Below the pieces are notes generated by a model. It was not told the origin of the DNA. It saw only the letters and a program-made list of their open reading frames with translations, and ran no database searches. A stretch of 64,000 bases of DNA, from positions 947,435 through 1,011,434 of the forward strand of contig JBGAHS010000002.1 of assembly GCA_044226015.1 (NCBI GenBank), given 5' to 3'. Numbering within the stretch: position 1 is the first letter of the stretch; every line of letters starts with the position of its first letter. Position numbers and translations under genes: made by a program. This document shows, in pieces, positions 7,609 through 33,018 of this stretch. The DNA comes from Candidatus Obscuribacteraceae bacterium. GTDB taxonomy: Bacteria > Cyanobacteriota > Vampirovibrionia > Obscuribacterales > Obscuribacteraceae.

Positions 7609-7613
7609 AAATC

Positions 7614-7853: not shown

Positions 7854-8369
7854 ATGCTTACAATGACAAAACAATCTGTACACAAGAAAATAAAATCACC
7901 TAGTGGAATGCTCACGCTTATATCCAACGGCTCTGCACTCGCTGCTATTCTCTGGGAAAATGATAGTCCCGATAGAGTCAGAATTGAGAAAGGAGAGCAA
8001 AGTGAAACTGACCCTATACTAATTGAAGCGGAAAAACAGTTGCTCGAATACTACGCCGGTCGCCGTACTAGTTTTGACTTGCCCTTAGACTTCCAGGGTA
8101 GTGACTTCCAAAAGTCGGTATGGAAGGCTCTGTTGGCTATTCCCTATGGCGAAACCAAAACCTACAAACAGATCGCATCAGAGCTTGGCAAAGAGCAAGC
8201 AGTAAGAGCAGTTGGAACGGCTATCGGCAAAAATCCTCTCTCGATAGTTGCCCCGTGCCACCGCGTCATCGGCTCTGATGGTGAATTAAGAGGCTTTGCT
8301 GGCGGGCTTGAAACAAAAGCACAATTGCTAAAGCTTGAATCGAATACTTCGCTGCAATCGGTGCTATGA
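7854..8369 (+). CDS. ogt: Methylated-DNA--protein-cysteine S-methyltransferase
   Basis: Active-site PCHRV; FQKSVWKALLAIPYGET; RAVGTAIGKNP. Start moved to ATG 7854 after GAAGGA. Confidence 0.95.
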   Translation: MLTMTKQSVHKKIKSPSGMLTLISNGSALAAILWENDSPDRVRIEKGEQSETDPILIEAEKQLLEYYAGRRTSFDLPLDFQGSDFQKSVWKALLAIPYGETKTYKQIASELGKEQAVRAVGTAIGKNPLSIVAPCHRVIGSDGELRGFAGGLETKAQLLKLESNTSLQSVL

Positions 8370-15800: not shown

Positions 15801-18800
15801 CAGAGCGTCCAAGAGTCAAATTGAATCCGAGGGCGCGGCCGCCATCGGCATATATGTGTCCTTTGTTGGTGAGATTGGCAACGAAATCAGTGGCAGTGAT
15901 GAGAACCTGGCCACCTTGCCCTCCGGTACCCTGGTCACCAAGCCTGCCTCCGGCACCGCCGCTTCCATTGCTGGCATTGCCACCGTTTCCGCCAAAAGCA
16001 TTGTAGGCTCCTGCAAAACCGCCGTTTGCGTCGATTTGAGACGTATCACTCAACGTAATAGTTGCAGTTCCCAGCTGTGATGTCGAAATCTCTATGCCCC
16101 CGAAACCAGTGGCACCACCACCGGCACCACCAGCCCCACTGTTGCCGACTGCACCTCCGGCTCCACCGCTGAGCCCCGAACCACCAACGCCTCCACTGGC
16201 AAACTGAGCACCACCATCTCCACCATTTGCGTTAATAAGACCCGGAATGATATTCGCCACTCCGGTAATTTTGATGTCACCACCGGCGCCGCCCTTTCCG
16301 GCATCAAGGACGGCACCCCCAGCGCCTCCGGCAGCAGTGCTACCCTTGCCACCATCGCCAGCTTTTGCGAACAAACTGCCGCCCGAACCGCCACCAGCTG
16401 AAAGCGCAGGCAGTGTGATGTCACCTTGCTGAGAACTTATGGTGATAGATCCACCATTGCCACCATCGCCTGATGCGCCGACCTGACCACCCTTGCCACC
16501 TGCAGCACCGTCACCACCTATGCCAGCATTTGCAACGAGCGATTTTCCGACTGAGCCGACTGAGCCACCAATGCCACCCAGAGCGGAGAGCGGCTCTGAA
16601 AGTGTGATGCTTGAGTCCGTAGTCAGCTTTATCTGCCCACCTTTGCCTCCGGCTCCAGCTCCAAGTATTGAGCCGCCGGCACCGCCCTGCTTAGAGCCAG
16701 CAGCACCCGCGCCAGCATCCGCCAGAATGCTTCCTCCCGAACCGCCATTAACTTTTACCTCGACCCCAGCACTGATGGCTGCCAGTCCGGTAACCGCGGT
16801 TAGCTTGCCACCACCGCCTCCCTTGCCAGCGGGACTGATGTCACCGCCCGCACCACCCATTGTCGTCCCTGCACCACCTGCGCCAGAGCCGACGAGAATG
16901 TCGCCGCCAGAACCAGCACTCATATCCATAGAACCTAAAAGAGTGATAGTCCCCAATTTAGAGTTCAAAGTGACGGTACCACCATCACCGCCATCACCAG
17001 ACCCCATCACAATGCCGCCAGAACCGCCATTAGCACCGCTTCCACCTGCACCGCTCTTTTCAGGGCTAGCACCAGCACCACCTTTTGCATTGATTGTGTC
17101 AATCAATATGTTGCCCAAGATTGTCGTAACACTAATGGAACCGCCCGCAGAGCCATCAGAGGGCGTACCACTATTGCCGCCTTTGCCGCCAGTCGATTTT
17201 CCTGGACCACCATCTGCTCCGGCTCCACCCGCTACGCCAGCTCCACCACTGACATCTAAACCAAAGAGGATAACGTCACCAACCTTTGAACTTACAGTAA
17301 TCTTCCCGCCTGTTTGAGAAGCACCGCCTGCGCCACCACTACCCCCGATGCCTCCAGCGCTTGCAAGAACGCCGCCAACTCCGGCAGCACCACCTACGCC
17401 ACCAACACCACCAGTTCCGCCTTTGACACTTATCACGGTGAATGGCAGCTGTGTTAAAGCGGAAGTATCAACAGTCAAGTTAACCGAACCTGCGCGACCA
17501 CCTGCGCCACCTGCACCTCCGATGCCACCACCTTTACCAGATCCACTTCCGGCACCGCCCGCTCCACCGGCGCCTCCTGTGCCACCATCAGAGAGAATGC
17601 TTGCAGCAAGAGTAATTCCAATAGGTGCTGTTAAATCAACTTTGCCGCCACTACCGCCACCCTGCCCGGCTTTGCCATCGGCACCACCGACACCTGCTGC
17701 TCCAGCTGTTCCTGCAGCGCCAGAAGCCAGTATCGACGACAACACATTTATTGTGTTTCCTTTTATTGTTATGTCGCCACCATTGTGTCCGCCAGAAAAG
17801 CCAGCAGAAATCAGTTCAGCCTGAACGTCAACCTTTCCACCGCTTATTAGAGTTATAGAGCCACTCTCGATAGCAATTTGCTTATTGATTGAGATATCAA
17901 AATTATTCGGTATAGTCGAATATTGAACCAGTCCCTTTCCCGTGCCAGTGCTGTCGAAAGACATAGCAACAATCGGCTTAGCTGCCACCAACTGAACTGA
18001 GCCAGCAGTGGCACTGTTACCCCCGACAGAAAAGACGCTGATGTTATCAAAGGCTTTGCTCGTCGAAGGCAAGGAGCCGCCCGCTACAGCCAGCAATGAG
18101 CCATTTTTTCCAGTCCCCGAGCCACCCGACAGCACAGACAAATTGCCTATACCGCCGTTAGATCCATTAGCATAGGCGATAAGCAGGACATTGCCACCAT
18201 CCTGATTTAAACCGGTAGAACTTGAGTTCAATACAGCACCGGAGAGATCAATATTACCCCCCTTGGCTGATGCTCCCTGCACTGTCACTGTTTGTCCTGA
18301 CAAAATGCTGCCACTCAGCGGAGGAATCGCTGATACAGCAACGGCACCGCCCGTTGCAAGAAGCGAAGCACCTGCTATCAAACTGATATCGTGACCCTGT
18401 TTCGTCGTCTTGTCTTGAGCTGTGATGCTTATATTTGGAGACGCTGTGATATCACCACTAGCTAATATCGCCAGATTTTCATCAACCTGAATGTTCGAAG
18501 TTATCTGTATATTTCCATTATCGTTGAAAAATGTAGGGTCTTTAACGTCGATAGCACCCAAATACAAAGTGTCTGAATTTGAACCGATGTGAGCTGCATA
18601 ACCGGTTACATTCGTCACACCATTGGCGGTGTCAATGAAACTTCGGATCTCACCAAGTCCGGAATTATAATTTATTTGAGGAGCATTAATTGAGCCTCCG
18701 AGCAGCGATAACACAGAATGTGCTTTCAAGCCGCTGCCGCCAACGTTAACTGCACCATTCAATGCTTCAATAGTTCCACCACTATTATTGATGTTTACGA

Positions 18801-19506
18801 ATTTCGGCAAGGAACTTGCAAGGTTCAGCCCCAATTGCTGCACAGAGGTTGTGTAGAGTGATGGGTTTGCAAGATTTACGGCCCCGTTTATTGATGAGAT
18901 CAATCCAGAATTGGCCACTGCACGCGACAGAACATTCACATTATTGGCTGCTTGCAAACTTGCCAAAACGGAAGAACCAGCGACGCTAGTGTTGCTTATG
19001 CTGCCACCTGCAACGAGACTCAAGCTGTTGGCACTGCGGATTGTGCCCTGATTGACGATGTTTTGCAGAGCTACAAGAGTCAAACTCAGATTTGGAATAG
19101 CATTCGAAAAACCGGCAAGACCGCTTTGAGGAAGCACTGTGGTTATCAATGCACCTGGCGCGTTGAAGATGTTTCTGGCAATAAGTGTGGCAGTCGTCGT
19201 TAAAGGGTTTGTTGAAACGACATAAATGGTGCCGAGATTTGAGAGGTTACCATTCATCTTGTGAATAGGACCATTGCTCACATCGATAACGAATGTGCTG
19301 CCAATCGGAATATTCATACTAGACCCGGTTGTGGAAGCCTTAGAGCCTGGTCTTAGTGTTGAAGAAGACAAAAGATTTGTCGTTGGAACAATTGGGTCAG
19401 CCACCGCATTCGGTGCAAATACTAAAGAGGAAACTTGAGAAAGACTTACAAAAATGACACACGCAGATGCAGCCGAAGCCACCGGCTTTGTTGAGCCCTT
19501 GTTCAT
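9862..19506 (-). CDS. Giant (3214 aa) glycine-rich repeat exoprotein / putative adhesin
   Basis: Signal-peptide-like N-terminus ending AVA-D; haemagglutinin-like beta-rich N-region; about 2300 aa of alternating GGxGGxG tracts and short beta-strand motifs; globular C-terminal domain. Confidence 0.85.
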   Translation of the reverse strand: MNKGSTKPVASAASACVIFVSLSQVSSLVFAPNAVADPIVPTTNLLSSSTLRPGSKASTTGSSMNIPIGSTFVIDVSNGPIHKMNGNLSNLGTIYVVSTNPLTTTATLIARNIFNAPGALITTVLPQSGLAGFSNAIPNLSLTLVALQNIVNQGTIRSANSLSLVAGGSISNTSVAGSSVLASLQAANNVNVLSRAVANSGLISSINGAVNLANPSLYTTSVQQLGLNLASSLPKFVNINNSGGTIEALNGAVNVGGSGLKAHSVLSLLGGSINAPQINYNSGLGEIRSFIDTANGVTNVTGYAAHIGSNSDTLYLGAIDVKDPTFFNDNGNIQITSNIQVDENLAILASGDITASPNISITAQDKTTKQGHDISLIAGASLLATGGAVAVSAIPPLSGSILSGQTVTVQGASAKGGNIDLSGAVLNSSSTGLNQDGGNVLLIAYANGSNGGIGNLSVLSGGSGTGKNGSLLAVAGGSLPSTSKAFDNISVFSVGGNSATAGSVQLVAAKPIVAMSFDSTGTGKGLVQYSTIPNNFDISINKQIAIESGSITLISGGKVDVQAELISAGFSGGHNGGDITIKGNTINVLSSILASGAAGTAGAAGVGGADGKAGQGGGSGGKVDLTAPIGITLAASILSDGGTGGAGGAGGAGSGSGKGGGIGGAGGAGGRAGSVNLTVDTSALTQLPFTVISVKGGTGGVGGVGGAAGVGGVLASAGGIGGSGGAGGASQTGGKITVSSKVGDVILFGLDVSGGAGVAGGAGADGGPGKSTGGKGGNSGTPSDGSAGGSISVTTILGNILIDTINAKGGAGASPEKSGAGGSGANGGSGGIVMGSGDGGDGGTVTLNSKLGTITLLGSMDMSAGSGGDILVGSGAGGAGTTMGGAGGDISPAGKGGGGGKLTAVTGLAAISAGVEVKVNGGSGGSILADAGAGAAGSKQGGAGGSILGAGAGGKGGQIKLTTDSSITLSEPLSALGGIGGSVGSVGKSLVANAGIGGDGAAGGKGGQVGASGDGGNGGSITISSQQGDITLPALSAGGGSGGSLFAKAGDGGKGSTAAGGAGGAVLDAGKGGAGGDIKITGVANIIPGLINANGGDGGAQFASGGVGGSGLSGGAGGAVGNSGAGGAGGGATGFGGIEISTSQLGTATITLSDTSQIDANGGFAGAYNAFGGNGGNASNGSGGAGGRLGDQGTGGQGGQVLITATDFVANLTNKGHIYADGGRALGFNLTLGRSGNGGDGGGSGNGGNGGMVGHGGSGGAGGFVQISVSNAFTSSTTGEQDLIGARGGDVFFNLASSGSGGNAGAKGNANTRGGNGGEILSNGNAGKGGSITILGGTGDISGFGTLAVAGGHVSAASPHSGAGGSGNVIGVGGNSGIIRGNGNAGNGGIISIGTSSGKILLVPLIAPGGDVEQGWNPVTGDGGRGGSTSGRGGNSGLIENNGNAGKGGYILLGSDSGQIGISGNTSATWLVAGGAVGAASPTTGKGGDASTGNGGNSGDIGSSGEGGVGGTVIAISKSGNIFTPKGSVIATGGDGGLYSASTGNGGSVSVKGDGGKSGSIAINADRSFTGNGGDAGSVSLSTDTGTASNVGVIILRGGVANGNLSRTGNGGSTVNGVGGDSGSIGKGGKGGLGGTLSITSGGDFTGGEVIAAYGGNAASQNYAPITGNGGNGTIKGGNAGDIDHEGIAGNGGDVSITSTNGDITPAQIFAFGGTTGIYTKDGTYLGPTIFNAHTGNGGNAIGDSSKGGIGGNGGTIGNAVQGGVGGSIKIDAAKSIPGSSLYTVDGGAGSDQASIAGNGGNGDKNGGKGGSVGSAGSGGDANYIKLTAEAGPSLIVRTVDAIGGSGGSNKGVAGNGGNAVYGLGAAGDGGALGDINSSFHLASGSGGNGGTVEINSLSISPVTFDCGANEGLRAYGGRGGDVTGKSGNGGNSLGLASRDSAGGKGGDILNAGGGGKGGKYVFTMDGGTVQLPLVSVYGGDSGAYLPTLTGSGGNGTNTKPGGTGGSLGAQGDGGRGGNLEVSAASISITASSPLILASGGNASAYVGVAGNGGNGGSNVSQIAGGGSGGKIDSAGSGGAGGLIKLTSKANQILIDGLLSVDGGQRGLVNQTGGNGGNGVSPLLGSKIGGGGGAGGSVAKAGHGGDSGRVVLDGQSTISGAGGILARGGDSFGILQIGGNGGDGKANGAGGVGGDIGGGGDAGSSLNKPGLYAIDISSKSDIGLTVILASGGSINGDFDGSGGAGGDAGSLSGAGGASGSVFDNGAGGGGGNVRITSISGAVSTTTVDAHGGSVGNMNAKSLTPGSQIAQNGDGGKSGAVGKNGDAGAGGSLTISTDGTFLANPTSSWNFSGGSVGAYNGTSADGGTGAPTAGKIVGGAGGGSGFVGSNGKAGSGGSISISTKLDATINADINLNGGSVLGIYAGKSGNGGVGGASGGAAGDTSGNGSAGAGGSFTFAGLGSSKLTCQNISASGGGVADNKGISGNGGSSTKAGGSGGNAGSGADGGAGGTISIKSDNLVSVTGSLIAEGSDGGNNYAVGGSGGTGLSGGAGGKVLDAGDGGRAGAISVESVNSDVTITGSVSINQGNGGTQNGIGGTGAVSNTGEDARGGGSGGNVGNAGNAGSAGFVIGPGGSITISASNNLLIGGSVTANGGKGGDNYGVAGSGGDSGSTGGAGGNVLNAGDGGKGGSVTLKALTGDMTISGSVLANQGDGGSQVSSAGSGGDASSSGRDSTGGNGGGIGRAGDGGASGVVAGVPGIVLNSGSDINITGSVTVLGGNGGDNLGIAGDGGNNPLHGGDGGTVDRAGNAGGKVVLLPSVKAISITAGSSITITGSISADGGVGGDQLGVAGKGGDASTSPTIKGTGGNGGNVNPSGNGGNGGDITISGGNSFSPPTSLGGLAGLQLGVAGLKGLGLTPGKDGTVSPQGKAGQPGTILTSLVPWSPGESEENPFAKKRSKTFITFRGLELPLASGTNLAMSGAEGSTEESELKGISFVEVVPSEAELNESYRAAVAKTAVANLVSDSVFTSDLKSKLARAGVSIRAGKGRSNFELESGALLLAPSKNVVLKTNHGALEIAAGAKVIVETSAEFTAVRTLHDRKPGDVRLISGNDAIEVNLGWQAVATNQTQRPALDFCHSTGVAVRNLSSQTLANGMRIHSSEFSVTAALVNDKTLQALRQSKEKADQKHYSQIVKDACILTSLNLRKGNYSQY

Positions 19507-20843: not shown

Positions 20844-22178
20844 ATGGGACACGGACATCACGAACTGGTTGAGAAAAATAGCGACTCCAAGGTCAGCGGG
20901 TCATCACTGGCAAAGACAGTAAACGCTGCCGATGAATCATTCAATGACTTATTCAAGAAAGCAACCAATGCTGTTGAGCAAATTCCAATTGCGATGATTA
21001 CAGGAAATATGACAGGCATCACGAAGGCTCTTGAAAGTGGAGGAAAGGTTGCTTCTGACGCGATCCTAGTGTCAACCAATGGTTTATTCACTGACTCAAG
21101 ACTGATGGAAGGTCTTATGCAAGGTTTGACAAAAGCGCTTCACGACAACGAAGTTGCAGAGCACCGTCAACATAAGATTGCCGAGAAAGCGCTTCACGAC
21201 CCAAAAACTCAGCAAGTTCGAGAAATACATAATGGTCAAGCCGTCGAGACAGTTGTTGTTGAAAAGAAAGATGGCTCAGTGCAAACATTCAAACCAGATG
21301 GAACGAAAATCGTCGAAACAGCAGACGGTACAAAAACTACCGAGTACCCCAAAGATGTTGATGGGACCGTAGCGAAGGTCATTGAAAAGTCTAACGGGGA
21401 GAAGGAAACGATTAATCGTGACGGCTCAAAGGTTTATGAATCTCCTGAACTTCAAGGAAAGAAAATCAAAGTAGATAGAGATGGCACCGAAACCGAAATT
21501 CGCCCTAATGGCACGCAAATCATCACCAGACCGGACGGAACACAAACAAAAATTACTGCCGATGGTACAAAGCTAACCCGCAAGCCAGATGGAGAAGAAA
21601 TACTGGAAAAGCCTAACGGTGACCGGGTTGTAACTCGTCCTGAAATGATAGAAGATGACGGTACGAAAGTATGGACAAAAGACAATGGCACCGAAGTTCG
21701 TGAAGGCAAAGACGGTAGCAGAACAACCATCTACCCCGAATCTGTCAACAAGAACGTGGAGTCGATAAAGGTCAGCAAGAACGGCGACGTAGAACAGCAC
21801 CTCAGAGATGGCTCAGTCATCAAAATGGACCACAAAGGTGGAATGGAAATCACAAATAAAGATGGCAGCACATCAAAGTTCAAAGCAAACGGTGATATCG
21901 AAGTACATGACGCTCACGGCAACGGCTTCAAAATGCACAAAGGGGTCATGACCGTCGACTCAGGAGATCTGAGCACAACGTACCACAGCAAAGGTGTCAC
22001 AGAGATAAGAGACCACAAAACGGGCGATCGCACCATCAAGACCTCAGACGGAAAAGAAATGGTCATACACAAAGATGGCACGGTCGAAGAGCGCGGCAAG
22101 AAAGACGAAGACCTCGGCGGCACTCTAGTAAAAATCGCCAACAAGGCAGCAGAACGAATTATGCGCGGCGGCTTCTAG
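20844..22178 (+). CDS. Beta-hairpin repeat protein (xxDGT/DGS repeats, Tcp10_C-like)
   Basis: More than 20 short (P/K/R)DG(T/S) turns at roughly 9-residue spacing; AAGGA RBS. Confidence 0.75.
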   Translation: MGHGHHELVEKNSDSKVSGSSLAKTVNAADESFNDLFKKATNAVEQIPIAMITGNMTGITKALESGGKVASDAILVSTNGLFTDSRLMEGLMQGLTKALHDNEVAEHRQHKIAEKALHDPKTQQVREIHNGQAVETVVVEKKDGSVQTFKPDGTKIVETADGTKTTEYPKDVDGTVAKVIEKSNGEKETINRDGSKVYESPELQGKKIKVDRDGTETEIRPNGTQIITRPDGTQTKITADGTKLTRKPDGEEILEKPNGDRVVTRPEMIEDDGTKVWTKDNGTEVREGKDGSRTTIYPESVNKNVESIKVSKNGDVEQHLRDGSVIKMDHKGGMEITNKDGSTSKFKANGDIEVHDAHGNGFKMHKGVMTVDSGDLSTTYHSKGVTEIRDHKTGDRTIKTSDGKEMVIHKDGTVEERGKKDEDLGGTLVKIANKAAERIMRGGF

Positions 22179-23334
22179 CGCGTACTTCACAGGCTTGAGC
22201 AATATCATATTGCTTGCGGTAGAGAGACTCATACATTGGCACCAACCTATCGGCGGAGAAGAAATTCTCCGCCCTGATTTTTCCGTTTTTGCCAAGGCGC
22301 TCACGTAATTCTTTATCGCTAATGAGCCTCTCTACTTGCCTTGCAAGTGCATCAGCATCCCCAAAATCGACAAGAAGCCCACACTTATTCTCTATCATAA
22401 GCTCAGGAATGCCACCAACCCTGGTAGCAACACTTGGACAGCCAAATGACATAGCTTCCAATATGCTCAGACAGAAACTCTCTGATTCTGAGGTAAAAAG
22501 TCCAATATCAGCAGCTTGCATATAGCTTTCTACTTCAGGAACACTTTCTCGGACAATAATGCGATCTTGCAATCCTAGCCGCTGCACCATTTCCACATAA
22601 GGCGAAAAACTGCCGCCAGCCACAATGACCAATCTGAATGAATCAGATGGGCGAATTCTTGCGACTGTCTCTAGAAGCAGATCTATGCGCTTGACTGGTC
22701 TCAGGTTAGAGGTGTGAACAAGCATGACCTGATCGTCCCTGATACCTAGCTCTGCACGCAAGGACTCACGCGATTGCAGCGGTACGCCTCGTTCGTAGAA
22801 ATTATGAATGACCTCGATTGGACCATCGAACCCAATTACTCTTCTTGTTTCGTTCTTCAAAAACTCAGATACGGTCGTCACTTCATCCGAGTGCGTCAAT
22901 GCATGATGAATAGCAGGACCGTAACCGGGGTCACTTCCCAGTAGCGTAGTGTCCGTACCGTGCAAAGTAGTCACAATTCTGGGTTGCTCGTGTGGAGCCA
23001 GCATACAATGCGCAAGAATAGCGGCAGTTGCGTGTGGCACCGCGTAGTGAACATGCAAGACATCTAATTGATAATTTCGACTGACTTCGGCCATCTTTAC
23101 GGACAGAGGCAAAGTATAGTCAGGATATTTGAACAACCCGTAGGTATTGATAGCAACGGGATGAAAATGAATCCTTTCTGCTTTTTCAGGCAAGCGAAAC
23201 GGGCGGTCATAACTAATGAAATGAACCTCATGACCGCGCTTTGCCAGTTCAATACCCAAAAGCGTTGCGACAACGCCACTACCACCTATTGATGGATAAC
23301 AGCTCATACCAATTCTCAAAGGGCAATTTGACAT
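22159..23334 (-). CDS. bshA: N-acetyl-alpha-D-glucosaminyl L-malate synthase (GT4)
   Basis: CYPSIGGSGVVAT, FKYPDYTLPL, HVHYAVPHA, TTLHGTD, SNLRPVKR and ESF motifs typical of BshA. Confidence 0.93.
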   Translation of the reverse strand: MSNCPLRIGMSCYPSIGGSGVVATLLGIELAKRGHEVHFISYDRPFRLPEKAERIHFHPVAINTYGLFKYPDYTLPLSVKMAEVSRNYQLDVLHVHYAVPHATAAILAHCMLAPHEQPRIVTTLHGTDTTLLGSDPGYGPAIHHALTHSDEVTTVSEFLKNETRRVIGFDGPIEVIHNFYERGVPLQSRESLRAELGIRDDQVMLVHTSNLRPVKRIDLLLETVARIRPSDSFRLVIVAGGSFSPYVEMVQRLGLQDRIIVRESVPEVESYMQAADIGLFTSESESFCLSILEAMSFGCPSVATRVGGIPELMIENKCGLLVDFGDADALARQVERLISDKELRERLGKNGKIRAENFFSADRLVPMYESLYRKQYDIAQACEVRARSRRA

Positions 23335-24050
23335 TAATACTGACGCGCTCCTCTGCCTGCACCGTCAAGCGATTCAAAAATGAGTGGGTCATTCGAATAC
23401 AAAGCCATTGCGTATTGAACACCAGCACGCTCTCCCCAAACTCGGGCGCGCGCTAACTGCAGTTCGACATAATTACGAGAAGACGTTTGGGTCAAATGCG
23501 CTTGCATTGCTTCTGTCCAGCTCTGCACAATTTCCGCATTTGAAATGTCAAACAGACTAGGCGACACACCTTCCGGTTCTCCCTCAGGAGTAACAGCATA
23601 ATAAAATAGCTGACGAATCGAATGTGCATTCGAACCTTTCAATTCTTTGAGTCCACCATAACGAGCTAAGCGGCAAGCATCACGAACTAGAAGCCCAAGA
23701 CGAGAATGATCAGGATGTTGATTTGGTGCATGACTCGGCGCAAGAATACTGGATGGTCGTATTCTCCTGATGATCTCAGCAATCTTGATTGCATGTTCAA
23801 CCTTTACTTCTAAATGAGCATCACCGTCTAGTTCAAAAAACTCGATTTCAGCACCCAAAATTCTTGCAGCATTTCGGGCCTCTTGCTCACGCTGTTCTGG
23901 CGAACCATGGGTGCCCGTCTCACCCCGAGAGCAGACATAGAGATGTACCTTTCTGCCCCGTTTTGACTCCAGAGCTACAATGCCACCGCAACCAAACTCA
24001 ATATCGTCGGGATGAGCACCAAACACGAGCAATGGGTCGCTATCAAACAT
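23334..24050 (-). CDS. bshB1: PIG-L family deacetylase, bacillithiol biosynthesis BshB1-like
   Basis: GAHPDDIE, SRGETGTHG, HPDH; TAATG coupling to bshA. Confidence 0.85.
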   Translation of the reverse strand: MFDSDPLLVFGAHPDDIEFGCGGIVALESKRGRKVHLYVCSRGETGTHGSPEQREQEARNAARILGAEIEFFELDGDAHLEVKVEHAIKIAEIIRRIRPSSILAPSHAPNQHPDHSRLGLLVRDACRLARYGGLKELKGSNAHSIRQLFYYAVTPEGEPEGVSPSLFDISNAEIVQSWTEAMQAHLTQTSSRNYVELQLARARVWGERAGVQYAMALYSNDPLIFESLDGAGRGARQY

Positions 24051-24813
24051 CGATGTATGCCTCGTCAGATCGCTCTATTTCCTCACGGGTAACATACTGT
24101 ATTTCAGGAGCATCTTCTTTGCGCAAATAGTTCGCCTCTCCAGCGCCAGTGACGTAATGAGTGCAGTGTATTACGGACTGCATCCATTTCAAGCGACTGT
24201 CTCTCGTGGGACTGATTTGCCTTTTCTCAAACTTCACAGCAGGCACATCCACATAAACATCGCCACCTTCGTGAAGCTTGAAGGAACCGTCAGTAGCGTG
24301 TCGGGCACGAACAATCTCGCCGTCTTTTTCAATATCTACAAAAAACTCGTCAACATCACAGGCAGATTCACGAACTTCAGTATCACTAGACCTGAGCACT
24401 CTTACACCATCAAGAAGCCCCATCTTCGCGTACATTTCAAGACAGAACTCAGAAACAGTATTGCCCTGCGTCTCTTTGAACATGTTGATCAATTTGTGCT
24501 CAACATAATTCGGCAACTGTCCCGTGGTCTTGTTTTGCCAACCTTCAGGAATTCGCTTGGCATACAAAGGCGAGAATTTGCGTTGAAGCTTATTTTCAAA
24601 AGTGAAATTGAGCATAGCTGGCTCATTTGTTTTGCGATGTCGAACAACCGTTCTGGTCTCCCGGGGGTCATGATCACTATCATGATAAAAGAAAACTATC
24701 TCGCCCCCGATTTCTTGCTGAAGCTTTCGTGCTGTGAAAATTTTGGCAACGAGAAACCTCTTCGGAAAAAAGCCTGAGGGTTGCTGACCAAAACAAATGA
24801 TTGGAGAACTCAT
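24043..24813 (-). CDS. Compact BshC-like protein (putative cysteine-adding enzyme)
   Basis: GQQ, VFFYHDSDHD, SPTRDSR and YVTGAGEANY match the order of BshC motifs; adjacent to bshB1/bshA; only 256 aa. Confidence 0.65.
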   Translation of the reverse strand: MSSPIICFGQQPSGFFPKRFLVAKIFTARKLQQEIGGEIVFFYHDSDHDPRETRTVVRHRKTNEPAMLNFTFENKLQRKFSPLYAKRIPEGWQNKTTGQLPNYVEHKLINMFKETQGNTVSEFCLEMYAKMGLLDGVRVLRSSDTEVRESACDVDEFFVDIEKDGEIVRARHATDGSFKLHEGGDVYVDVPAVKFEKRQISPTRDSRLKWMQSVIHCTHYVTGAGEANYLRKEDAPEIQYVTREEIERSDEAYIDV

Positions 24814-26519
24814 TCGCTAATAACCCTTCCGCCATTACTTCTATCACCAATTGCCATTTGGAGTATCCAACTTAATACCACACAAATAGCGCAGCCAATA
24901 AGAGGATACCAGAGGTATGAGATGCTCAGAGTGAAATAAAGAATGAAAACAATTGATTGAGCAATCAATGCAGCCCAAAAGATAGCATTGCCACCAATTC
25001 TGCGGAAGAAGAATGCTACGACAAAAAGACCCAACATAACGCCATAAAAAATTGAACCAAGAATATTCACGGCTTGAATGAGGTTCTCAACAAGATTCGC
25101 ATAAAGCGCAAAAATTATCGCGAGCACTCCCCACAGGGCAGTAAAAATTCGCGTAACTCGCACGTAAGTGGCATCATTTTCTTTTGGGTTGAAATGCTTG
25201 TATATGTCGATGCTGGTGCTTGCTCCAAGAGCATTTAGCTCAGCAGCCTTTGATGATAATGCAGCGGCAAAAAATGCGGCGATCAAAAGGCCTATGACTC
25301 CGTGTGGCAATTGCTGCAATATGAATGTGATGAACACATAATCGGCATCATTTGCTTTTGCACCAGCTGTCTTACTGGAAATGATCTTAGAAGCTTCCGC
25401 TTTTATTGCGTTTGCTTTTTCTTGCGATTCCAACGCAAGAGCGAAGGACTTTTTCTCAGCTTCGAGATTCGATTCTTTGCGAGCTGCCACCCAATCTTGC
25501 AGGTTCAGCTTCAAGTCCTTGCGATTCTTCTTATAGCTCTGGTCCAAATTACCCAACTGCGGGTCTGCTGCATTTGCATCCATGAATCTCCTTGATGATG
25601 ACTCGAAGAACATCGGAGCTTCGTTAAACTGATAAAAAACGAACATCAAAACGCCAAGCATCAAAATAAAAAACTGCATCGGAATTTTGCATACTGCATT
25701 GAACAAAAGTCCCAGTCGACTTTCTCTCAAAGATGATCCCGAAATATATCTCTGCACCTGAGACTGATCCGTCCCAAAGTAGGAAAGCATTAGAAAGGTA
25801 CCACCAAGAAGTCCAGACCAAAAGGTATAGCGTTCTTGCAGATTCGGGTAAAAATTCACTGCATTCAATTTATGCATGCCGCCAGCCAGCGCGAGGGTTC
25901 CACCAAGGTCAAGCCCCGTCGGCATTTTAGAAATCAAAAGACAAGCAGCACTAATCATTCCTGCAAAAATGATCAGTAGTTGATACCGCTGCGTCACCGT
26001 AACTGCCTCGCACCCGCCCATGACTGTATAGGCGATAACAAGAAGCCCACAGCTAATAATCGTGGGGTTCAAGGGCCATCCAAAGACCGTTGTCAAAACG
26101 ATTGCCGGTGCATAAATTGTCAGCCCAGCACCAAGTCCCCGTTGCAAAAGAAACAGAACTGCACCGAGCAATCTCGTCTTAAAGTCAAAGCGTTTCTCCA
26201 GGTATTCATACGCAGTGTAGACATTCATTTTCCGAAACTTGGGGAGAAAAAATACCGAGATGATTATCAGCGCGAGAGGCACGCCAAAATAAATCTGAAT
26301 AAAGCTCAGCCCACCAAGATAGCCCTGACCAGGAGTGGAAAGAAAGGTAATAGCACTTGCTTGTGTCGCCATCACGGAAAGCCCGATTGCGTACCACGGA
26401 GTTTGGCTGCTACCTTTTAGATAACTGTTCAAATCACCAGGGTGGCGGGTTCTCCACATTGCGTAAGCCGCAATGCCAACTATAGTTCCAATCAAGACAA
26501 CATAGTCCAACGTGTTCAT
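24810..26519 (-). CDS. Sodium:solute symporter family protein
   Basis: LSVMATQASAITFLSTPGQ, TAYEYLEKRF, YFGTDQSQVQRY, about 13 TM segments; start moved to ATG 26519. Confidence 0.93.
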   Translation of the reverse strand: MNTLDYVVLIGTIVGIAAYAMWRTRHPGDLNSYLKGSSQTPWYAIGLSVMATQASAITFLSTPGQGYLGGLSFIQIYFGVPLALIIISVFFLPKFRKMNVYTAYEYLEKRFDFKTRLLGAVLFLLQRGLGAGLTIYAPAIVLTTVFGWPLNPTIISCGLLVIAYTVMGGCEAVTVTQRYQLLIIFAGMISAACLLISKMPTGLDLGGTLALAGGMHKLNAVNFYPNLQERYTFWSGLLGGTFLMLSYFGTDQSQVQRYISGSSLRESRLGLLFNAVCKIPMQFFILMLGVLMFVFYQFNEAPMFFESSSRRFMDANAADPQLGNLDQSYKKNRKDLKLNLQDWVAARKESNLEAEKKSFALALESQEKANAIKAEASKIISSKTAGAKANDADYVFITFILQQLPHGVIGLLIAAFFAAALSSKAAELNALGASTSIDIYKHFNPKENDATYVRVTRIFTALWGVLAIIFALYANLVENLIQAVNILGSIFYGVMLGLFVVAFFFRRIGGNAIFWAALIAQSIVFILYFTLSISYLWYPLIGCAICVVLSWILQMAIGDRSNGGRVISE

Positions 26520-26662
26520 GAATAGAACTCCGTCAGTAATATCAGCAAACTGATCCACAGAATGAAAGCAAGAAACACAAAGCCATATACTGCTTTCCAG
26601 GTCTTTAGCAAAGGCAGTCCCGGGTTTTCATTCTCATCCAAAGTACTGCCCTCACTCTTCAC
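26516..26662 (-). CDS. 48-aa single-TM peptide, probable symporter accessory subunit (below the ORF-track cutoff)
   Basis: Hand-translated MKSEGSTLDENENPGLPLLKTWKAVYGFVFLAFILWISLLILLTEFYS; GTGA overlap with the upstream stop and ATGA overlap with the symporter start. Confidence 0.8.
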   Translation of the reverse strand: MKSEGSTLDENENPGLPLLKTWKAVYGFVFLAFILWISLLILLTEFYS

Positions 26663-29208
26663 TTTCCGATCGAAAGCATGTTTGCAAACAGCTTGTAGGC
26701 TCCAGGTACACCAGCGGGAAGTTCTCTGAAGAACACCAAACCGGTGTACATGTAATAACCTTTGCCGTAAGGTGCTATCAGAAGATTGCCTTTGACGGAT
26801 TCCTCGCCGACGTCGTTGCAGGCAAGAATGGCGGTAAAATGGCCGTCATACTTAGCTGGGCAATAAATTGATCGCTCTTGCACCCAACCGTCAAAGTCAC
26901 TCTGTGTAATTTTGTTGGGAAAATTTAAGACCGGATGTTCTGGTGCTAGAAAGGTGATCGGAGCTTTCTCGTCTGTCACGCGAGCTGCAGAAATCTCAAG
27001 GTCATATGGTGCAATTTTCTCCGCTTTGAGGTTATCGGGTCGATTGTATTGAACGATTAAAGTGCCACCATTTTTAACGTATTCGAACAAAATCGGAACA
27101 GCGGCACCAATGTTCTTCTTGACGTTAAAGGCTCTCACTCCGAGAACCACGGCGTCTACACCCTCTAATTGTTGAGCGTTGAGACCTGATTCATCGAGCA
27201 CTTTCACTGTATACCCAATCTCTCCTATGTTCTCAGGCAGACTGTCTCCCGCGCCGGCAATGTACCCCACAGTTTTTCCACGAAAGGCAATATTGGTACT
27301 GACTGCCTTCATCGATGCTTCCGGTTGCAACAATTGAACGGGCAAGTGTTCGTAACTAACTTCTGATCGGTGGTTTCTATAACTGACACCGTTCATGCTC
27401 GCTTCCGCGAGGATTCTAACAGTACCTTCCTTCTTTGGAGAGCTAATGTCGAAACTCAACTTACAAGTGTCGCCCACCTTCTCAAGTCGAAATTCGCGCT
27501 TCGATGGAATTGCCTTCCACCCAGAAGGAAGAACTAATCTTAAGGATCCTGCAGATTGCGAGCGTGAAGCAGTCATCTCAAGCTCGACAGTTCGTGTAGT
27601 ACCTGGCTTAAAGAGCACAACTTCTTTGCTGAAGTTCAAAGAAACTGGTGGTATTACATCAATTCGTCGAGTAATTTCTGCATTGGAAACCTTAGTTGCA
27701 TTGAAAGGCTCAACTTCAATATCGAGCCTGTGGCCCAATACCTCAAAACTGTCCACAACAGGGAAAGCTGCGGTATTTTCCGGGCTACCAATTAGTTCAT
27801 CGTCCTCAACTCCAAACAGCCCCGAAGTACCCTCCTTGCGAAGCCACCAGGGCTGTGAGAAGGCAGTTGAAACTGGAATACTTTCTACGGCTTCAAAACT
27901 GACTTCCTTGTCCCGCTCAAGGACCAGATGTTTCTTCTCCTCTTTATTCAGGCTCGGATACGTCGTCGAAACCCACACAACAGGCAAATCAGCTCGTAGC
28001 AATGCAGTATGAACTATTTTAATTGCCTCACCAGGAACAAAATTCTGTTGAACAGTTTTTGCATTCACTGTCAAACCTATACATTCTTGCAAAATCTTGT
28101 CTAACAACTTGCGTTTTTCAGCGATGATCGAGTCGTTCGATTTTAACGAATCGAGCTCAGTGCGCAAGTCTAAAATTGCAAGTGCGCTAGCAGCAGGGTT
28201 TTTCGCATCAAACTTAGCAATAATCGAATCGATTGCCTGCTGAATCTTATCTCCGCCTGGTACGCGGTGCCAGGTGGTGTCGACACCATCCATAATATCA
28301 TTTTGTGCTTGTTCACCATCGAGATTTTGAAAAGATTCCAGGCGCGGACCCGCACTAACATTCTTAAACTGGAATGCATCAAACCCCTGAGTCTTGTGCA
28401 TTGCTCGGCTCTTCGCAGCAATATCCATAAACGTCTCGGCGCTAACAGAATCAATTCCACCTACGTCGATCTTCAACGCATTTACGCCCACGGCTTTATC
28501 TTTTTGGAATGTCGAAATATTCCACATTATTCGTTTCGCCTGCCATGGCGCTAACTTTTGCTCTGGAAATGCCTTGGGGTCCGCAGCAGCCTTGAATGCC
28601 TCCAGGGCAAGCACAGTGGACGCCGTATGGTGCCCATGAGTACCGCCAGGGCTCGGAGAAAAGCGCGTGATGATCACATCAGGTTTGAACTTCCTGATAA
28701 TGCGAACCACATCGGAAAGTACTTCTTGTTTATTCCAAACTTTGAGAGTCTCAGCATAATTTTTCGAGAAACCAAAATCAATCGCGCGCGAAAAGAACTG
28801 TTGTGCACCATCTAACTTTCTTGCTGCAAGAAGTTCTTGGGTACGGGCAACACCGAGCTTCGCGCCCAAATCGGCTCCCAAGACATTCTGCCCACCGTCA
28901 CCACGAGTCAGCGACAAATATGCCGTACGATAATCACGCCCACGAGACAAATAAGTCAGCAACTCGGTGTTTTCGTCATCGGGATGAGCAGCTATGTATA
29001 AAACACTGCCCATTTTTCTAAAGCACTCGAGCTCATGCAAAATGGCGGACTGCCTGCTATGCACAGCCACACTAGTTTCCTGATTCATTTGGGCTCCCAG
29101 AGTCATATTCGACGCGAACGGCGACATGCACAAAAGCGCAGAGACAAGTGCATGCCGCCAGTTAACGCAGACTAGCTTTTTCCATTTAGTGGAGTGATTG
29201 GATTTCAC
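26659..29208 (-). CDS. Exported PIG-L/LmbE family deacetylase with Ig-like and C-terminal glutamine-amidotransferase-like domains
   Basis: Signal-like N-terminus; AAHPDDEN, TRGDGGQN, RTQELLAAR, DFGFSK, HGHH; C-terminal GYIAGAGD, GGTLIVQYN, FFRELPAGVPGAY. Confidence 0.88.
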   Translation of the reverse strand: MKSNHSTKWKKLVCVNWRHALVSALLCMSPFASNMTLGAQMNQETSVAVHSRQSAILHELECFRKMGSVLYIAAHPDDENTELLTYLSRGRDYRTAYLSLTRGDGGQNVLGADLGAKLGVARTQELLAARKLDGAQQFFSRAIDFGFSKNYAETLKVWNKQEVLSDVVRIIRKFKPDVIITRFSPSPGGTHGHHTASTVLALEAFKAAADPKAFPEQKLAPWQAKRIMWNISTFQKDKAVGVNALKIDVGGIDSVSAETFMDIAAKSRAMHKTQGFDAFQFKNVSAGPRLESFQNLDGEQAQNDIMDGVDTTWHRVPGGDKIQQAIDSIIAKFDAKNPAASALAILDLRTELDSLKSNDSIIAEKRKLLDKILQECIGLTVNAKTVQQNFVPGEAIKIVHTALLRADLPVVWVSTTYPSLNKEEKKHLVLERDKEVSFEAVESIPVSTAFSQPWWLRKEGTSGLFGVEDDELIGSPENTAAFPVVDSFEVLGHRLDIEVEPFNATKVSNAEITRRIDVIPPVSLNFSKEVVLFKPGTTRTVELEMTASRSQSAGSLRLVLPSGWKAIPSKREFRLEKVGDTCKLSFDISSPKKEGTVRILAEASMNGVSYRNHRSEVSYEHLPVQLLQPEASMKAVSTNIAFRGKTVGYIAGAGDSLPENIGEIGYTVKVLDESGLNAQQLEGVDAVVLGVRAFNVKKNIGAAVPILFEYVKNGGTLIVQYNRPDNLKAEKIAPYDLEISAARVTDEKAPITFLAPEHPVLNFPNKITQSDFDGWVQERSIYCPAKYDGHFTAILACNDVGEESVKGNLLIAPYGKGYYMYTGLVFFRELPAGVPGAYKLFANMLSIGK

Positions 29209-30065
29209 TTCTTGAGGCTTTTAATTAGGTCAGCATTGAGTTTTACAAAACTGGGGTCACTAGCTTTCTCAGCCAGCTCACTCGACTGCTTTGCGGCCGC
29301 AATCGCACCTTCTTTATCGCCAAGCTTTGCTAGAATCTCGGCTTTCAAATAAACCATATAATGAGCTTCTCGTTCGGCAATTGCTTTGTCAACCCATTCC
29401 TTGGCTTGCTTCAAATCTTGCCCATGATTGTAATAAAACATGGCCGCCTGATAGTACGGCTTTTGCTTCGCATCTGAAGCCATCACTTCTTTGATTTGCG
29501 AAAGAACCTTTTCTGTCACATCAACTTCAATCTTCACTGGTACTCTGGTTTTGTCCCAGCTGAGATCCATCTCGGCTGACTCATCGCGCAAATTATCGAA
29601 GTCGATGGTGAAACTCTCAACAGCCTGAGATAAATTGACCGGCTTAGCTTTAATTCTGGCAAGGTCACCTTTCTCATCGTATTTGTAGGCGCCCCACTGG
29701 TCAGACCCTTTGTTTATGATTACCGTCCATTCGTCCTTTCCAGGAATAGTCATCAAGGCATAGGTTCCTGCCGGTATCTCTGTTCCGTTAAGCTTAACTG
29801 CAGTACTGAAGGTAATCTTCGTAGCTTTGTTAGCCCCGGTTCTCCAGACCTTTCCGTAAGCGATCATGCCACCAAAAATTTCGCGACCTTTTACACTTGG
29901 TCGGGAATACTCGATTTCTACATCGGTTAGTCCAACGCGCTGTTTGATGGTGCAAGCAGGACTTGGAGCAGGAAACTCAACTTTAGGAGCATCCGCGTAG
30001 GCTCCTGCAGCAGAACCAGCGAAGCAACAAAGTGCAAAAGCTAAAGACAAATTCTTTAAGTTCAT
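29205..30065 (-). CDS. DUF2911 domain secreted protein with C-terminal TPR-like helices
   Basis: Signal peptide; PAPSP, YSRPSVKGR.IFG, VWRTGAN, QWGAYKY; start moved to ATG 30065. Confidence 0.88.
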   Translation of the reverse strand: MNLKNLSLAFALCCFAGSAAGAYADAPKVEFPAPSPACTIKQRVGLTDVEIEYSRPSVKGREIFGGMIAYGKVWRTGANKATKITFSTAVKLNGTEIPAGTYALMTIPGKDEWTVIINKGSDQWGAYKYDEKGDLARIKAKPVNLSQAVESFTIDFDNLRDESAEMDLSWDKTRVPVKIEVDVTEKVLSQIKEVMASDAKQKPYYQAAMFYYNHGQDLKQAKEWVDKAIAEREAHYMVYLKAEILAKLGDKEGAIAAAKQSSELAEKASDPSFVKLNADLIKSLKK

Positions 30066-30376: not shown

Positions 30377-32248
30377 TCAGCCAACCAGCTTTCTAGAGGA
30401 TTCATCGCTCAGCTCGGCGGTTTCATTTTTTGATTTAGATTCTGCATGTATTGGAAATTTGAACCAGAATGTACTGCCACCACCATCGGTGGCTCTCACA
30501 GCTATTTCTCCCCTATGCGCTTGCACAATAGCTCTGCAAATTGGCAATCCTAAACCCGTACCTTTTGTTCTTTTATTGCTGGAACTATGAGCTTGGGAGT
30601 ATTTTTCAAAAATTGCTTCTTCATAGCCTTCAGGAATGCCCGAGCCATGATCAATCACCCGCAATTCGGCGAAAGTACCATCCACAAACGTGACAAGCTC
30701 TACTTCACTATCATCGTCTGAAAATTTAATCGCGTTTGAAAGTAAATTGACGATGACTTGAACTATACGATCAGGGTCAGCGTACACATCCCTTTCATCG
30801 GCGCTGCCATCATATTTCAAGCGAACGCCTTGCAGTTCTGCAAAACCGCGCACGGACTCAATTGCACGCTCGACGATTTCGGCAAAGCAGACGTTCCTAA
30901 ATTTCATTGAGAGCTTTCCTGCTTCCATTTTCTCCATGTCGAGAAGATCATTTATTAGCAAGATTAGCCTCGATATGCCGACCTCTGCGCCTTTTATTCT
31001 CTTTTCTGCCACGGGCGTTATAGGTCCATAGGTTCCATTTAAAAGAAGGTCGAGAGTCATTTCCAGCGAGGTCAGCGGGGTGCGCAGCTCGTGTGAAACG
31101 ACGGCAACAAACTCCTGCTTCAAGCGCTCAACTTCTTTCCTGTCTGTAATGTCGTGCGCTACACAAAAGAAAGATTGCTCTTCTTCAGACCATCGAATTG
31201 ACCATAAAGTAAAGATCGGACGTCCATCGCTTGCCAGAACTCTGTTTTCCAAATTGAAAAGAACAGCAGAGCCCCGATTTTTTTCCAGACCATCTTTGAA
31301 TTTTTCGACATCATCTTTGAACAATAAATCCGAAACGTGCTTTCCGATCAGCTGCTCTGGTTGAATACCCCAAACCTGTTGGGAGGCAGGGTTCATAGCA
31401 CTAAAAATACTGTCTTTGCTGATTGAACAAATCACATCCACAGCATTGTCTAAAATAGCTCGTTCTTTTCTTGTTGCTTCAGCCAGGTCTTTTGCCATCT
31501 GATGAAAGGTTCTATCAAGCTGAGATATTTCATCGTCACCGGCAAGCTCAGGCAATAACTCCTCTTTTCGCGAAAGACGCAGTGTGTTGTCCATCAGCAA
31601 GCCTAGCCTGGAAGTAGTGCTGCGATTAAAGTTTATCGTCAGGAAAGCTCCGATGCCGATAGCGGCAGCAACTCCAAATAGAATCCAGGCTTTAACGAAA
31701 GCGCGAGTTCGGGCTTCTTCGGCTGAATTAATGCGATGCTTTGAAGTTTCGTGAGCTACAAGTTCTTCAAGTTTCGCGGTGAAGGCAGCACCAACCATAT
31801 CAAGTTGCTTGTATAAGAGCCCCACTTCCAGCTCGCTAAGCCGCTCTTCTCCTGCGATATGGCGCTCATATCTGCTCATGAGATCCATTCCGGTCAATGA
31901 TATCTTCTGCAATTTTTCAAGTTGCTTTACTTCAACACGATCATCGCCCATCAAGTTCCTGAGCTCAGCAAGATTTTGGTTCGTTCTCTTGATCTTCTCT
32001 TGAAACTTTTGACGTTCTTCATCATCACGCGTGTGCTTAAAGGTTAACAACTGAGATGCCGCATCGTAGTACTGCTTCACCATTGAATTAGCTGACGAAA
32101 TAATGGTTTTGGAATGATCTACTTCTGAGGCTTCTCTTTCTACTTTCTGGAATAGAATGAACAAAGTCAAAAGGAAAATGAGCATGAGCCCAATGGGCAC
32201 GCCAACTAGAATTGCTGCTTTGTGTGAGAGTTTAAGACTCTGAGCCAT
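30377..32248 (-). CDS. Membrane sensor histidine kinase (periplasmic sensor, HAMP, PAS, HisKA, HATPase)
   Basis: Two TMs, DEISQL HAMP, PAS ending HDITDRK, H-box VSHELRTPL, NLLSNAIKF, GTGLGL; start moved to ATG 32248. Confidence 0.93.
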   Translation of the reverse strand: MAQSLKLSHKAAILVGVPIGLMLIFLLTLFILFQKVEREASEVDHSKTIISSANSMVKQYYDAASQLLTFKHTRDDEERQKFQEKIKRTNQNLAELRNLMGDDRVEVKQLEKLQKISLTGMDLMSRYERHIAGEERLSELEVGLLYKQLDMVGAAFTAKLEELVAHETSKHRINSAEEARTRAFVKAWILFGVAAAIGIGAFLTINFNRSTTSRLGLLMDNTLRLSRKEELLPELAGDDEISQLDRTFHQMAKDLAEATRKERAILDNAVDVICSISKDSIFSAMNPASQQVWGIQPEQLIGKHVSDLLFKDDVEKFKDGLEKNRGSAVLFNLENRVLASDGRPIFTLWSIRWSEEEQSFFCVAHDITDRKEVERLKQEFVAVVSHELRTPLTSLEMTLDLLLNGTYGPITPVAEKRIKGAEVGISRLILLINDLLDMEKMEAGKLSMKFRNVCFAEIVERAIESVRGFAELQGVRLKYDGSADERDVYADPDRIVQVIVNLLSNAIKFSDDDSEVELVTFVDGTFAELRVIDHGSGIPEGYEEAIFEKYSQAHSSSNKRTKGTGLGLPICRAIVQAHRGEIAVRATDGGGSTFWFKFPIHAESKSKNETAELSDESSRKLVG

Positions 32249-32337
32249 AATAAACGCCGAATTCGAAGAGCCTAAGCATAGCAAGGCGAAAGATGCCTTA
32301 CAATAACAAAATTGAACGAGAGCGAAAGCATCCCTAT

Positions 32338-33018
32338 ATGGCAAAAATTCTAATTATTGAAGATGACAAACAGCTGTCAATGTTGATTTGCGACTTTCTT
32401 CAAGGCGAAGGTCACACAGCAGAGGCAGTCTATAAAGGAAAAGAGGGACTGGAAAGGCTTCTCTTCTATAAATACGATGTTGTTATTCTCGATTGGGAGT
32501 TACCCGAACTTTCTGGACCAGAAATTTGCAAGAGGTATCGCGAGAAAAGCGGAAACAGCCCAATTCTCATGCTAACGGGAAAGAAAGAGCTTGAGGAAAA
32601 AGAAACAGGGCTAGACTCTGGCGCTGATGATTATTTGACAAAACCATTTCAGCTTCGTGAGCTCGCCGCGCGCTTACGAGCGCTTCTGCGTCGCCCTGCA
32701 GTAGCAAGTTCACCCGTACTCAAAGCAGGAAATATTAGTTTCAACCCAGCCAGCAGGCAGGTGTTCAGAGATGATCTTGAACTCACGATGCAACCCAAAG
32801 AAATCGCCTTACTCGAATTTTTCATGCGCCATCCAAACGTTCCATTCAGCGCAGATGCAATTATGGATAGGGTCTGGCCGTCCGAATCGGATGCAGCACC
32901 AGATACGGTGCGAATTCAAATCATGCGACTTCGAAATAAGCTAGACATCGACGGCAAAGAATCAATGATAAAAACAGTGCACAGAGTAGGCTACATGTTT
33001 GTTCCGCCCGAGGTATGA
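32338..33018 (+). CDS. OmpR-family response regulator
   Basis: ILIIEDD, ILDWELP, GADDYLTKPF, winged-helix ending IKTVHRVGY. Confidence 0.95.
   Translation: MAKILIIEDDKQLSMLICDFLQGEGHTAEAVYKGKEGLERLLFYKYDVVILDWELPELSGPEICKRYREKSGNSPILMLTGKKELEEKETGLDSGADDYLTKPFQLRELAARLRALLRRPAVASSPVLKAGNISFNPASRQVFRDDLELTMQPKEIALLEFFMRHPNVPFSADAIMDRVWPSESDAAPDTVRIQIMRLRNKLDIDGKESMIKTVHRVGYMFVPPEV

Follow-up and report, generated by a model that had tools for sequence, protein, structure and literature searches.

A conserved seven-gene operon of Obscuribacterales: a likely variant of bacillithiol metabolism with a proposed extracytoplasmic salvage branch

Layout, conservation and distribution of the operon

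We analysed a 64,000-nucleotide stretch of DNA (hereafter the window) from a Candidatus Obscuribacteraceae bacterium (contig JBGAHS010000002.1, positions 947,435 to 1,011,434; genome G000, 8.19 Mb and 92% complete), in which seven overlapping genes run on the minus strand from position 30065 to position 22159. The closest named homologs of this genome belong to Obscuribacterales/Melainabacteria. In order of reading, they encode a DUF2911 protein, a large LmbE/PIG-L zinc hydrolase with the marks of an exported protein (‘big PIG-L’), a 48-residue membrane peptide, a sodium:solute symporter (SSS), a 256-residue protein with the fold of the bacillithiol enzyme BshC (‘mini-BshC’), a BshB1-like cytoplasmic deacetylase, and BshA, the synthase of N-acetylglucosaminyl-malate (GlcNAc-Mal). 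The six junctions are GTGA, GTGA, ATGA, ATGA, 8 nt and TAATG, exactly as the first-pass annotation of this DNA had placed and read them; the overlaps, and they alone, suggest co-translation. We read the operon, which is genuine and conserved, as a form of bacillithiol metabolism that has not been described before and that likely includes an extracytoplasmic salvage branch.

Conservation was counted in the best 80 of 360 GTDB loci of the 256-residue gene, which were selected by resemblance to the window's own copy and some of whose record labels look wrong; only loci with room for the gene in question enter each count. Upstream of mini-bshC lie the genes for the symporter (78/78), big PIG-L (71/73) and DUF2911 (66/67), downstream those for BshB1 (71/79) and BshA (66/69), and all six large genes stand together in 50 of the 59 long loci, which come from Obscuribacterales and Verrucomicrobiota. 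This linkage is not due to chance. No recurring extra neighbour gene was found among the loci, the top clusters being shadow frames; promoter and terminator scans remained at chance level, Rfam gave no match and no relevant tandem repeat was seen. An apparent fusion of bshA to the PIG-L gene in two loci (L118 and L119) was dismissed as a long open frame in GC-rich DNA.

We also compared the occurrence of big PIG-L and bshA in three samples: 80 genomes of the order Obscuribacterales, 301 genomes of the phylum of G080, which we read as Verrucomicrobiota from sequence identities against a record title of Pseudomonadales, and 151 genomes of the phylum of G081, whose record is titled Acidobacteriota. 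These counts include related, hence non-independent, genomes, and only some candidates per genome were scored, so that misses may occur. Big PIG-L is present in 34 of the Obscuribacterales genomes (a 35th, weak match at E 1e-4 was left out); bshA accompanies it in 33 of these and is found in 0/46 of the others, the lone exception being a bin of 86% completeness in which the contig breaks off within bshB1. The corresponding figures are 21/21 and 1/280 in the Verrucomicrobiota sample, and 77/82 and 23/69 in the Acidobacteriota sample (75/80 for the former fraction if two unpublished genomes, G107 and G132, are excluded). In the latter phylum the bsh and PIG-L genes are mostly unlinked, yet they are joined in other orders, as C256-bshA-PIG-L-SSS (L117, L118), bshC-bshB1-bshA-PIG-L-SSS (L119, L120) or bshB1-bshA-PIG-L (L121, L123). 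One genome, G414, has retained big PIG-L after it moved 2.5 Mb away. The first-pass annotation had proposed to judge its reading by whether the module is linked to, and co-occurs with, bsh genes; when this comparison was run, the module was linked to them in several orders and co-occurred with bshA where unlinked, which did not refute that reading.

The synthesis genes

BshA (22159..23334; 391 residues) aligns end to end with solved BshA chains (E 4e-90 to 1e-88; E 1e-88 for PDB 5d00) and exceeds the equivalog cut-off of TIGR03999 (404 bits, cut-off 273.7), and its predicted product is GlcNAc-L-malate. Mini-BshC (24043..24813; 256 residues) has 6816 relatives, with a median length of 255 residues over 87 rows, and no Pfam or NCBIfam match at E 0.01: neither PF10079 nor TIGR03998 recognises it, only 4 of 54 homologs match PF10079 weakly (best E 0.003), a sequence search against solved structures returned nothing, and hhalign of its profile with canonical BshC gave a probability of 0.7. 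The link to BshC rests on fold and motifs. The predicted model (pLDDT 92.7) finds Bacillus subtilis BshC (PDB: 4WBD) in Foldseek with E 8e-10 and superposes on it with Z 20.4 and a root mean square deviation of 2.5 Å over 239 aligned residues, whereas the next match has Z 14.5; in the Atlas, the BshC fold stands at rank 3 with a score of 0.91. Mini-BshC spans residues 82-512 of the 4WBD chain, with some 190 internal residues absent, and shares with canonical BshC the motifs GQQ, DHD, SP..R and G..E..Y. The label ‘BshC-like’ that the protein had received earlier is thus upheld by fold and not by sequence.

Canonical BshC, a protein of about 540 residues, dimerises through a coiled coil (PMC4360819). 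Since the mini-BshC model contains no long helix (the longest has 17 residues), we infer that the dimerising coiled coil has been lost. The 256-residue protein is best read, from its model, as a minimal BshC and as the predicted cysteine-adding enzyme of the operon; if so, it is a natural demonstration of which half of the enzyme is dispensable. Canonical bshC, searched for with PF10079, was not found in any of the 80 genomes of the order.

The third synthesis enzyme, the BshB1-like deacetylase (23334..24050; 238 residues), has PDB 6p2t as its best solved match (E 6e-26) and scores 138 bits against TIGR04001, below the cut-off of 182.5, which BshB1 reaches in 0/80 genomes of the order. Its zinc motif HPDD.E is present in 75/75 rows, and R..E (Arg53) in 71/75. 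LmbE enzymes are described as having an HXDD+H zinc motif, and Arg109 of BshB as helping to bind substrate (PMC4101496). In 71 of the 75 rows this Arg109 is replaced by Gln (QHPDH in place of the canonical RHPDH), and the four rows that keep it are canonical acidobacterial BshB1 copies.

Taken together, the operon shares with the bacillithiol pathway of B. subtilis, Chlorobiota and Bacteroidota an orthologous BshA, a BshB1-type deacetylase, and the Rossmann fold and motifs of BshC; it differs from that pathway in the half-size ligase that escapes PF10079 and TIGR03998, in a BshB1 that has Gln at position 109 and is often lost, and in its four coupled envelope genes. We think it likely that the operon encodes synthesis of a thiol. 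Several observations nevertheless count against bacillithiol itself as the product. Mini-BshC and BshC share 16% identity, and the BshC reaction is given as unreconstituted in a review of 2018 (PMC5790435); Arg109 is replaced, as noted above; one acidobacterial genome (G081) has a canonical bshC as well as the mini-bshC operon; in the 92%-complete G000 neither a YpdA orthologue nor a bacilliredoxin scored above cut-off; and the YpdA-like genes of four of the 80 genomes of the order are all below cut-off, though all four genomes bear the operon. Another reductase might do the work of YpdA; or, as a speculation, hydrolysis followed by resynthesis might take the place of disulfide reduction; or the product might be an analogue.

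The last idea, that the module makes and recycles a relative of bacillithiol with another acyl group on glucosaminyl-malate (GlcN-Mal) or with an acid other than malate, draws on the small and divergent ligase, the clade-wide change at position 109, the failure to find YpdA and bacilliredoxin, and the retention of both ligases in G081. It is improbable in our judgement: BshA passes its equivalog cut-off and aligns with solved BshA over its full length, mini-BshC keeps the four core motifs of BshC, and the four YpdA-like genes occur exclusively in operon-bearing genomes. In G081 the canonical bshC lies about 15 kb from the mini-bshC operon, the big PIG-L of that operon has no catalytic N-terminus, and the genome has a second bshA (L077, L085, L086). 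We saw no mutual exclusion between the operon and glutathione synthesis in the order: no genome has GshB over cut-off, sub-cut-off GshB paralogues occur in 14/80 genomes, 10 of them operon-bearing, and PF04262 gave no match in G000. Several Obscuribacterales genera (G029-G037, G075-G077 and others) carry three to six such sub-cut-off GshB-like ATP-grasp paralogues.

Of the 33 bshA genomes of the order, 8 have an operon without bshB1. The BshA tree puts these losses at four or more separate points, next to sister lineages that still have the gene; L118 and L117 likewise have no bshB1 or only a fragment of it. In bshB1-less pairs dN/dS is 0.05-0.09 for bshA and 0.02-0.07 for mini-bshC, with dS saturated in some comparisons, so that both genes remain under purifying selection. 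The exported PIG-L is the only PF02585 member in four bshB1-less genomes (G031, G034, G035 and G061; 87-95% complete), and G003 and G535 carry a second PIG-L, which in G003 belongs to a NeuB/WbqC glycan locus. These repeated losses would be explained most simply if GlcNAc-Mal, too, were deacetylated by the exported enzyme, which could then stand in for bshB1; an unrelated deacetylase or supply from outside are alternatives.

One could go further and suppose that the exported PIG-L is mainly the pathway's BshB, so that GlcNAc-Mal would leave the cytoplasm, lose its acetyl group there and be carried back by the symporter for use by mini-BshC, with thiol salvage as a secondary matter. The recurrent loss of bshB1 while bshA stays under selection, the four genomes without another PIG-L, the absence of Arg109 from the operon's BshB1 and the position of the symporter gene directly before mini-bshC in all 78 loci would suit this detour through the periplasm. 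Even so, we regard it as unlikely, for 71 of 79 loci retain bshB1, on which one pair shows purifying selection (dN/dS 0.06), the pathway has no known exporter, a deacetylase of another family could substitute, those four genomes are incomplete, and G003 and G535 have their second PIG-L.

The envelope genes and the lyase operons

The DUF2911 protein (29205..30065; 286 residues; PF11138, E 3e-58) has a signal-like N-terminus and TPR-like helices at its C-terminus; it has no solved relative and no usable Atlas match. Its gene has been relocated jointly with that of big PIG-L in G414 and G447, and the protein is likely a periplasmic accessory. Big PIG-L itself (26659..29208; 849 residues) matches PF02585 over residues 70-204 (E 7e-16; 59 bits, cut-off 28), and its catalytic residues H75-P-D77-D78, H194 and R122 are at least 93% conserved in 90 rows. 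The first-pass annotation had called the enzyme exported, and signal-like N-termini in most homologs, which were judged by eye, together with hydropathy agree with this. Every characterised LmbE enzyme is stated to act on N-acyl-glucosamines (PMC4101496), and we predict from its sequence that big PIG-L is an N-acyl-glucosaminyl-malate amidase or deacetylase.

Within NCBIfam, the best match of big PIG-L is Mca (E 1e-12), followed by MshB and BshB1. Bca (BshB2) and Mca are small cytoplasmic enzymes that have been proposed to free GlcN-Mal for reuse, and big PIG-L has the same HXDD+H motif; it differs from them in its 849 residues, of which about 550 at the C-terminus are extra, in its signal-like N-terminus and in having a dedicated symporter. 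Big PIG-L would work like these enzymes, although its sequence is not that of a member of either family: it scores 48 bits against TIGR03446, which demands 277, and has no match to TIGR04000.

The symporter (24810..26519; 569 residues) matches PF00474 and exceeds the cut-off of TIGR00813 (211 bits, cut-off 184). Its nearest solved relatives belong to the SLC5/SSS carboxylate symporters: 7sl9, a monocarboxylate transporter (E 6e-44), and the sialic acid transporter SiaT, 5nv9 (E 1e-42). The operon's symporter forms a separate bacterial family, distinguished by its coupling to the 48-residue peptide (26516..26662), a single-helix membrane protein recognised by a motif in homologous loci and by hydropathy. 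In 83 of 94 loci this motif ends where the SSS gene begins, and we regard the peptide gene as real; its stop overlaps the SSS start, W22, Y26, V29 and L40 are invariant in 30 rows, and the peptide is likely, judging by these features, a small partner of the symporter. The symporter is a predicted importer of GlcN-Mal, and we think this compound is probably its cargo. Two further loci deserve mention here. In L121, a DASS/CitMHS-type transporter (6957-8351, minus strand) follows bshB1-bshA-big PIG-L in place of the SSS and is possibly a non-orthologous replacement that fits a dicarboxylate-bearing cargo; in L158 (5928-7768; G000:C5), the second small PIG-L of the genome is encoded beside a GntR regulator and a gene resembling UDP-GlcNAc 2-epimerase.

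Support for this cargo came from a second type of operon. Distant relatives of big PIG-L with its full architecture (26-35% identity, same motifs) are encoded on alphaproteobacterial and Bacillus plasmids, and have a signal peptide in Bacillus but not in the alphaproteobacteria. An ArgH-like lyase lies within about 5 kb in 22/22 long PIG-L plasmid matches (22 of 32 records; 9 of the 22 are Aminobacter), and sugar ABC importers, ROK regulators and PfkB or NagK-like kinases are its neighbours. Two Deinococcus plasmids (L143, 6980-16581; L144, 7061-16677) carry a ROK gene, an ArgH-like lyase, a large PIG-L that is related in its N-terminal part, a sugar ABC importer, a small PIG-L and a kinase; Deinococcus is a bacillithiol-making genus, and these plasmid loci offer a cultivable test case. 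The lyase also occurs without PIG-L, in Roseomonas, where its neighbours are a ROK kinase and a protein of the SIS type, and in three further loci, and one haloarchaeal match has an unrelated context.

The same lyase is present in 16 genomes of the Acidobacteriota sample, where 15 of the 16 adjoin SSS, PIG-L or bshC: 11 are beside a gene of this SSS family (four of these as SSS-PIG-L-lyase rows), three are near PIG-L, one is tail-to-tail with bshC, and the sixteenth is unlinked. The rows in L171, L176 and L178 are preceded by a ROK regulator and a TonB-type receptor, and in L185 an SSS-PIG-L-NagB-type row adjoins bshC. Among PIG-L genomes the lyase is present in three of the five that have no bshA and in 11 of the 77 that have it (p 0.03). 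Since the same front end is found beside either BshC or a fumarate-type lyase with glucosamine-type enzymes, GlcN-Mal is likely, on these gene neighbourhoods, to be the metabolite that both operon types share, and to our knowledge it is the sole known compound that fits both BshC and lyase. The lyase belongs to the fold family of the class I fumarate lyases ArgH, PRK06705 and 2SL; its proposed reaction would require C-O elimination from a malate glycoside, for which fumarase and carboxymethyloxysuccinate lyase are precedents. The suggestion in the first-pass annotation that the symporter recovers GlcN-malate has therefore gained independent support from the lyase operons, and the cargo itself keeps the status of a prediction.

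The sugar ABC, ROK, kinase and NagB neighbours, along with weak matches to diacetylchitobiose deacetylases (E 0.004), could also be taken to mean that the envelope set scavenges an unrelated amino sugar, such as a chito-oligosaccharide, or a glucosamine-aspartate adduct that the lyase splits (the classical type of ArgH substrate being an N-linked adduct), and that it lies near bsh genes for a precursor or for co-regulation. We find this quite improbable: no glycosidase is encoded in the operon or among recurring neighbours, the module tracks bshA even where the two are not neighbours, it adjoins bsh genes in several arrangements, and the closest symporters of solved structure transport carboxylates. 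More remote still is a front end for S-succinated or damaged bacillithiol, in which the amidase would free a cysteine adduct and the lyase would repair it in the manner of 2SL. Class I lyases have a precedent on S-succino adducts, in 2SL with succinated N-acetylcysteine (PMC9706529), and amino-acid permeases are found beside lyase or PIG-L; yet the lyase keeps company with sugar ABC, kinase and deaminase-type genes even where PIG-L is absent, and the best lyase match in the window genome reaches 28%, which is not close.

Proposed pathway, known systems and origin

The reading that we prefer, and to which we give an even chance on the sequence evidence, is that the operon makes bacillithiol in the cytoplasm and possesses an extracytoplasmic salvage arm that recovers GlcN-Mal. 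BshA would make GlcNAc-Mal; the periplasm would receive this compound or bacillithiol, as the thiol, a disulfide or a conjugate, whether released by the same cell or by its neighbours; the exported PIG-L would cleave the N-acyl bond, be it cysteinyl or acetyl; the symporter and its peptide would bring GlcN-Mal in; and mini-BshC would recharge it with cysteine. Elsewhere, the front end would feed the ArgH-like lyase, which would convert GlcN-Mal to glucosamine and fumarate, with a kinase and a deaminase acting next, and the compound would serve as food; as the window genome lacks a close lyase, the arm would here serve salvage and not feeding. Somewhat more tentatively, we envisage a community cycle in which GlcN-Mal is the currency: exported amidases free it, producers (Obscuribacterales, Verrucomicrobiota and Acidobacteriota) re-import it and recharge it with the half-size BshC, some of them without a cytoplasmic deacetylase so that their synthesis would loop through the periplasm, and other bacteria split it with a lyase that is now mislabelled argH.

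The salvage arm has its own difficulties. Big PIG-L falls far below the cut-off of every NCBIfam model that it matches, and its third motif is HGHH, not HPDH; no exporter is encoded in the operon. Lyase-linked and bsh-linked symporters form no more than sister clades (37-43% identity), so their cargo may differ, and in several PIG-L/lyase loci an amino-acid permease or a DASS transporter replaces the SSS. Finally, 23 of the 100 bshA genomes in the Acidobacteriota sample lack big PIG-L, which has also been lost in L075 and L079, so that the arm would be optional. With respect to the first-pass annotation, which had proposed a system for salvage or exchange of bacillithiol-type thiols, linkage, co-occurrence and transfer stand, whereas it had overlooked the half-size, Pfam-invisible BshC, the dispensable and divergent bshB1, and the YpdA that was not found.

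A comparable working principle is known for glutathione, which is cut outside the cytoplasm by gamma-glutamyl transpeptidase, its parts then being re-imported; the enzymes and the thiol are unrelated to those considered here. Export of glutathione is described in the 2018 review, in whose treatment of bacillithiol no analogous salvage is established and import and export are left open (PMC5790435); to that question the operon contributes a candidate transporter and a candidate exported hydrolase. Verrucomicrobia are listed among the lineages without a predicted thiol (PMC6282198), and a survey that required BshC-like length does not have them in its main text (PMC12719100). As both surveys required full-length BshC, they would miss operon-bearing genomes, for which the operon predicts a thiol in about 7% of sampled Verrucomicrobia and about 40% of Obscuribacterales. 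The lyase link, in turn, suggests how the core of bacillithiol might be catabolised and what three orphan families may do. In the literature that we searched on the module and its parts, mostly the main text of open-access papers, we found no description of the module.

The first-pass annotation had raised the possibility that the block was horizontally acquired, and most of the trees support this. In a quick tree, Obscuribacterales BshA forms one clade (support 99) within Verrucomicrobiota-labelled sequences; the SSS and PIG-L trees agree with this nesting, and only the mini-BshC tree does not (FastTree). An approximately unbiased test on mini-BshC and BshA rejected monophyly of the Verrucomicrobiota sequences with p 0.022 (31 chosen rows, no mixture model), and among 300 further genomes of the phylum to which the window belongs, bshA was found in one. 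The GC content and codon use of the operon are host-like, bshB1 alone having low GC at third codon positions, which speaks for an old transfer; a recent transfer, for which composition gave no sign, was set aside. Together these sequence comparisons point to one old transfer from Verrucomicrobiota followed by patchy loss. Six records among the loci (L025, L026, L027, L031, L044 and L050) have titles that do not fit (Bifidobacteriaceae, Pseudomonadales, Akkermansia) and are probably mislabelled bins; those with bshA branch among soil and freshwater Verrucomicrobiota.

The operon's neighbours in the window are of other kinds. A 444-residue open reading frame (ORF) at 20844-22178 (plus strand), with short beta-type repeats and a Tcp10_C match (E 1e-11), runs towards bshA and shares 20 nt with the 3' end of that gene. 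Further on, at 9862-19506 (minus strand), lies a 3214-residue ORF with 26% glycine, a signal-like N-terminus and no Pfam match, which resembles a giant surface protein rich in glycine; GC content is raised and skew is strong in this region. Immediately upstream of the operon (30377-33018) we noted a CHASE3/PAS histidine kinase and a divergent OmpR-type regulator; similar kinases stand beside a few other operon loci, but such kinases are common in these genomes.

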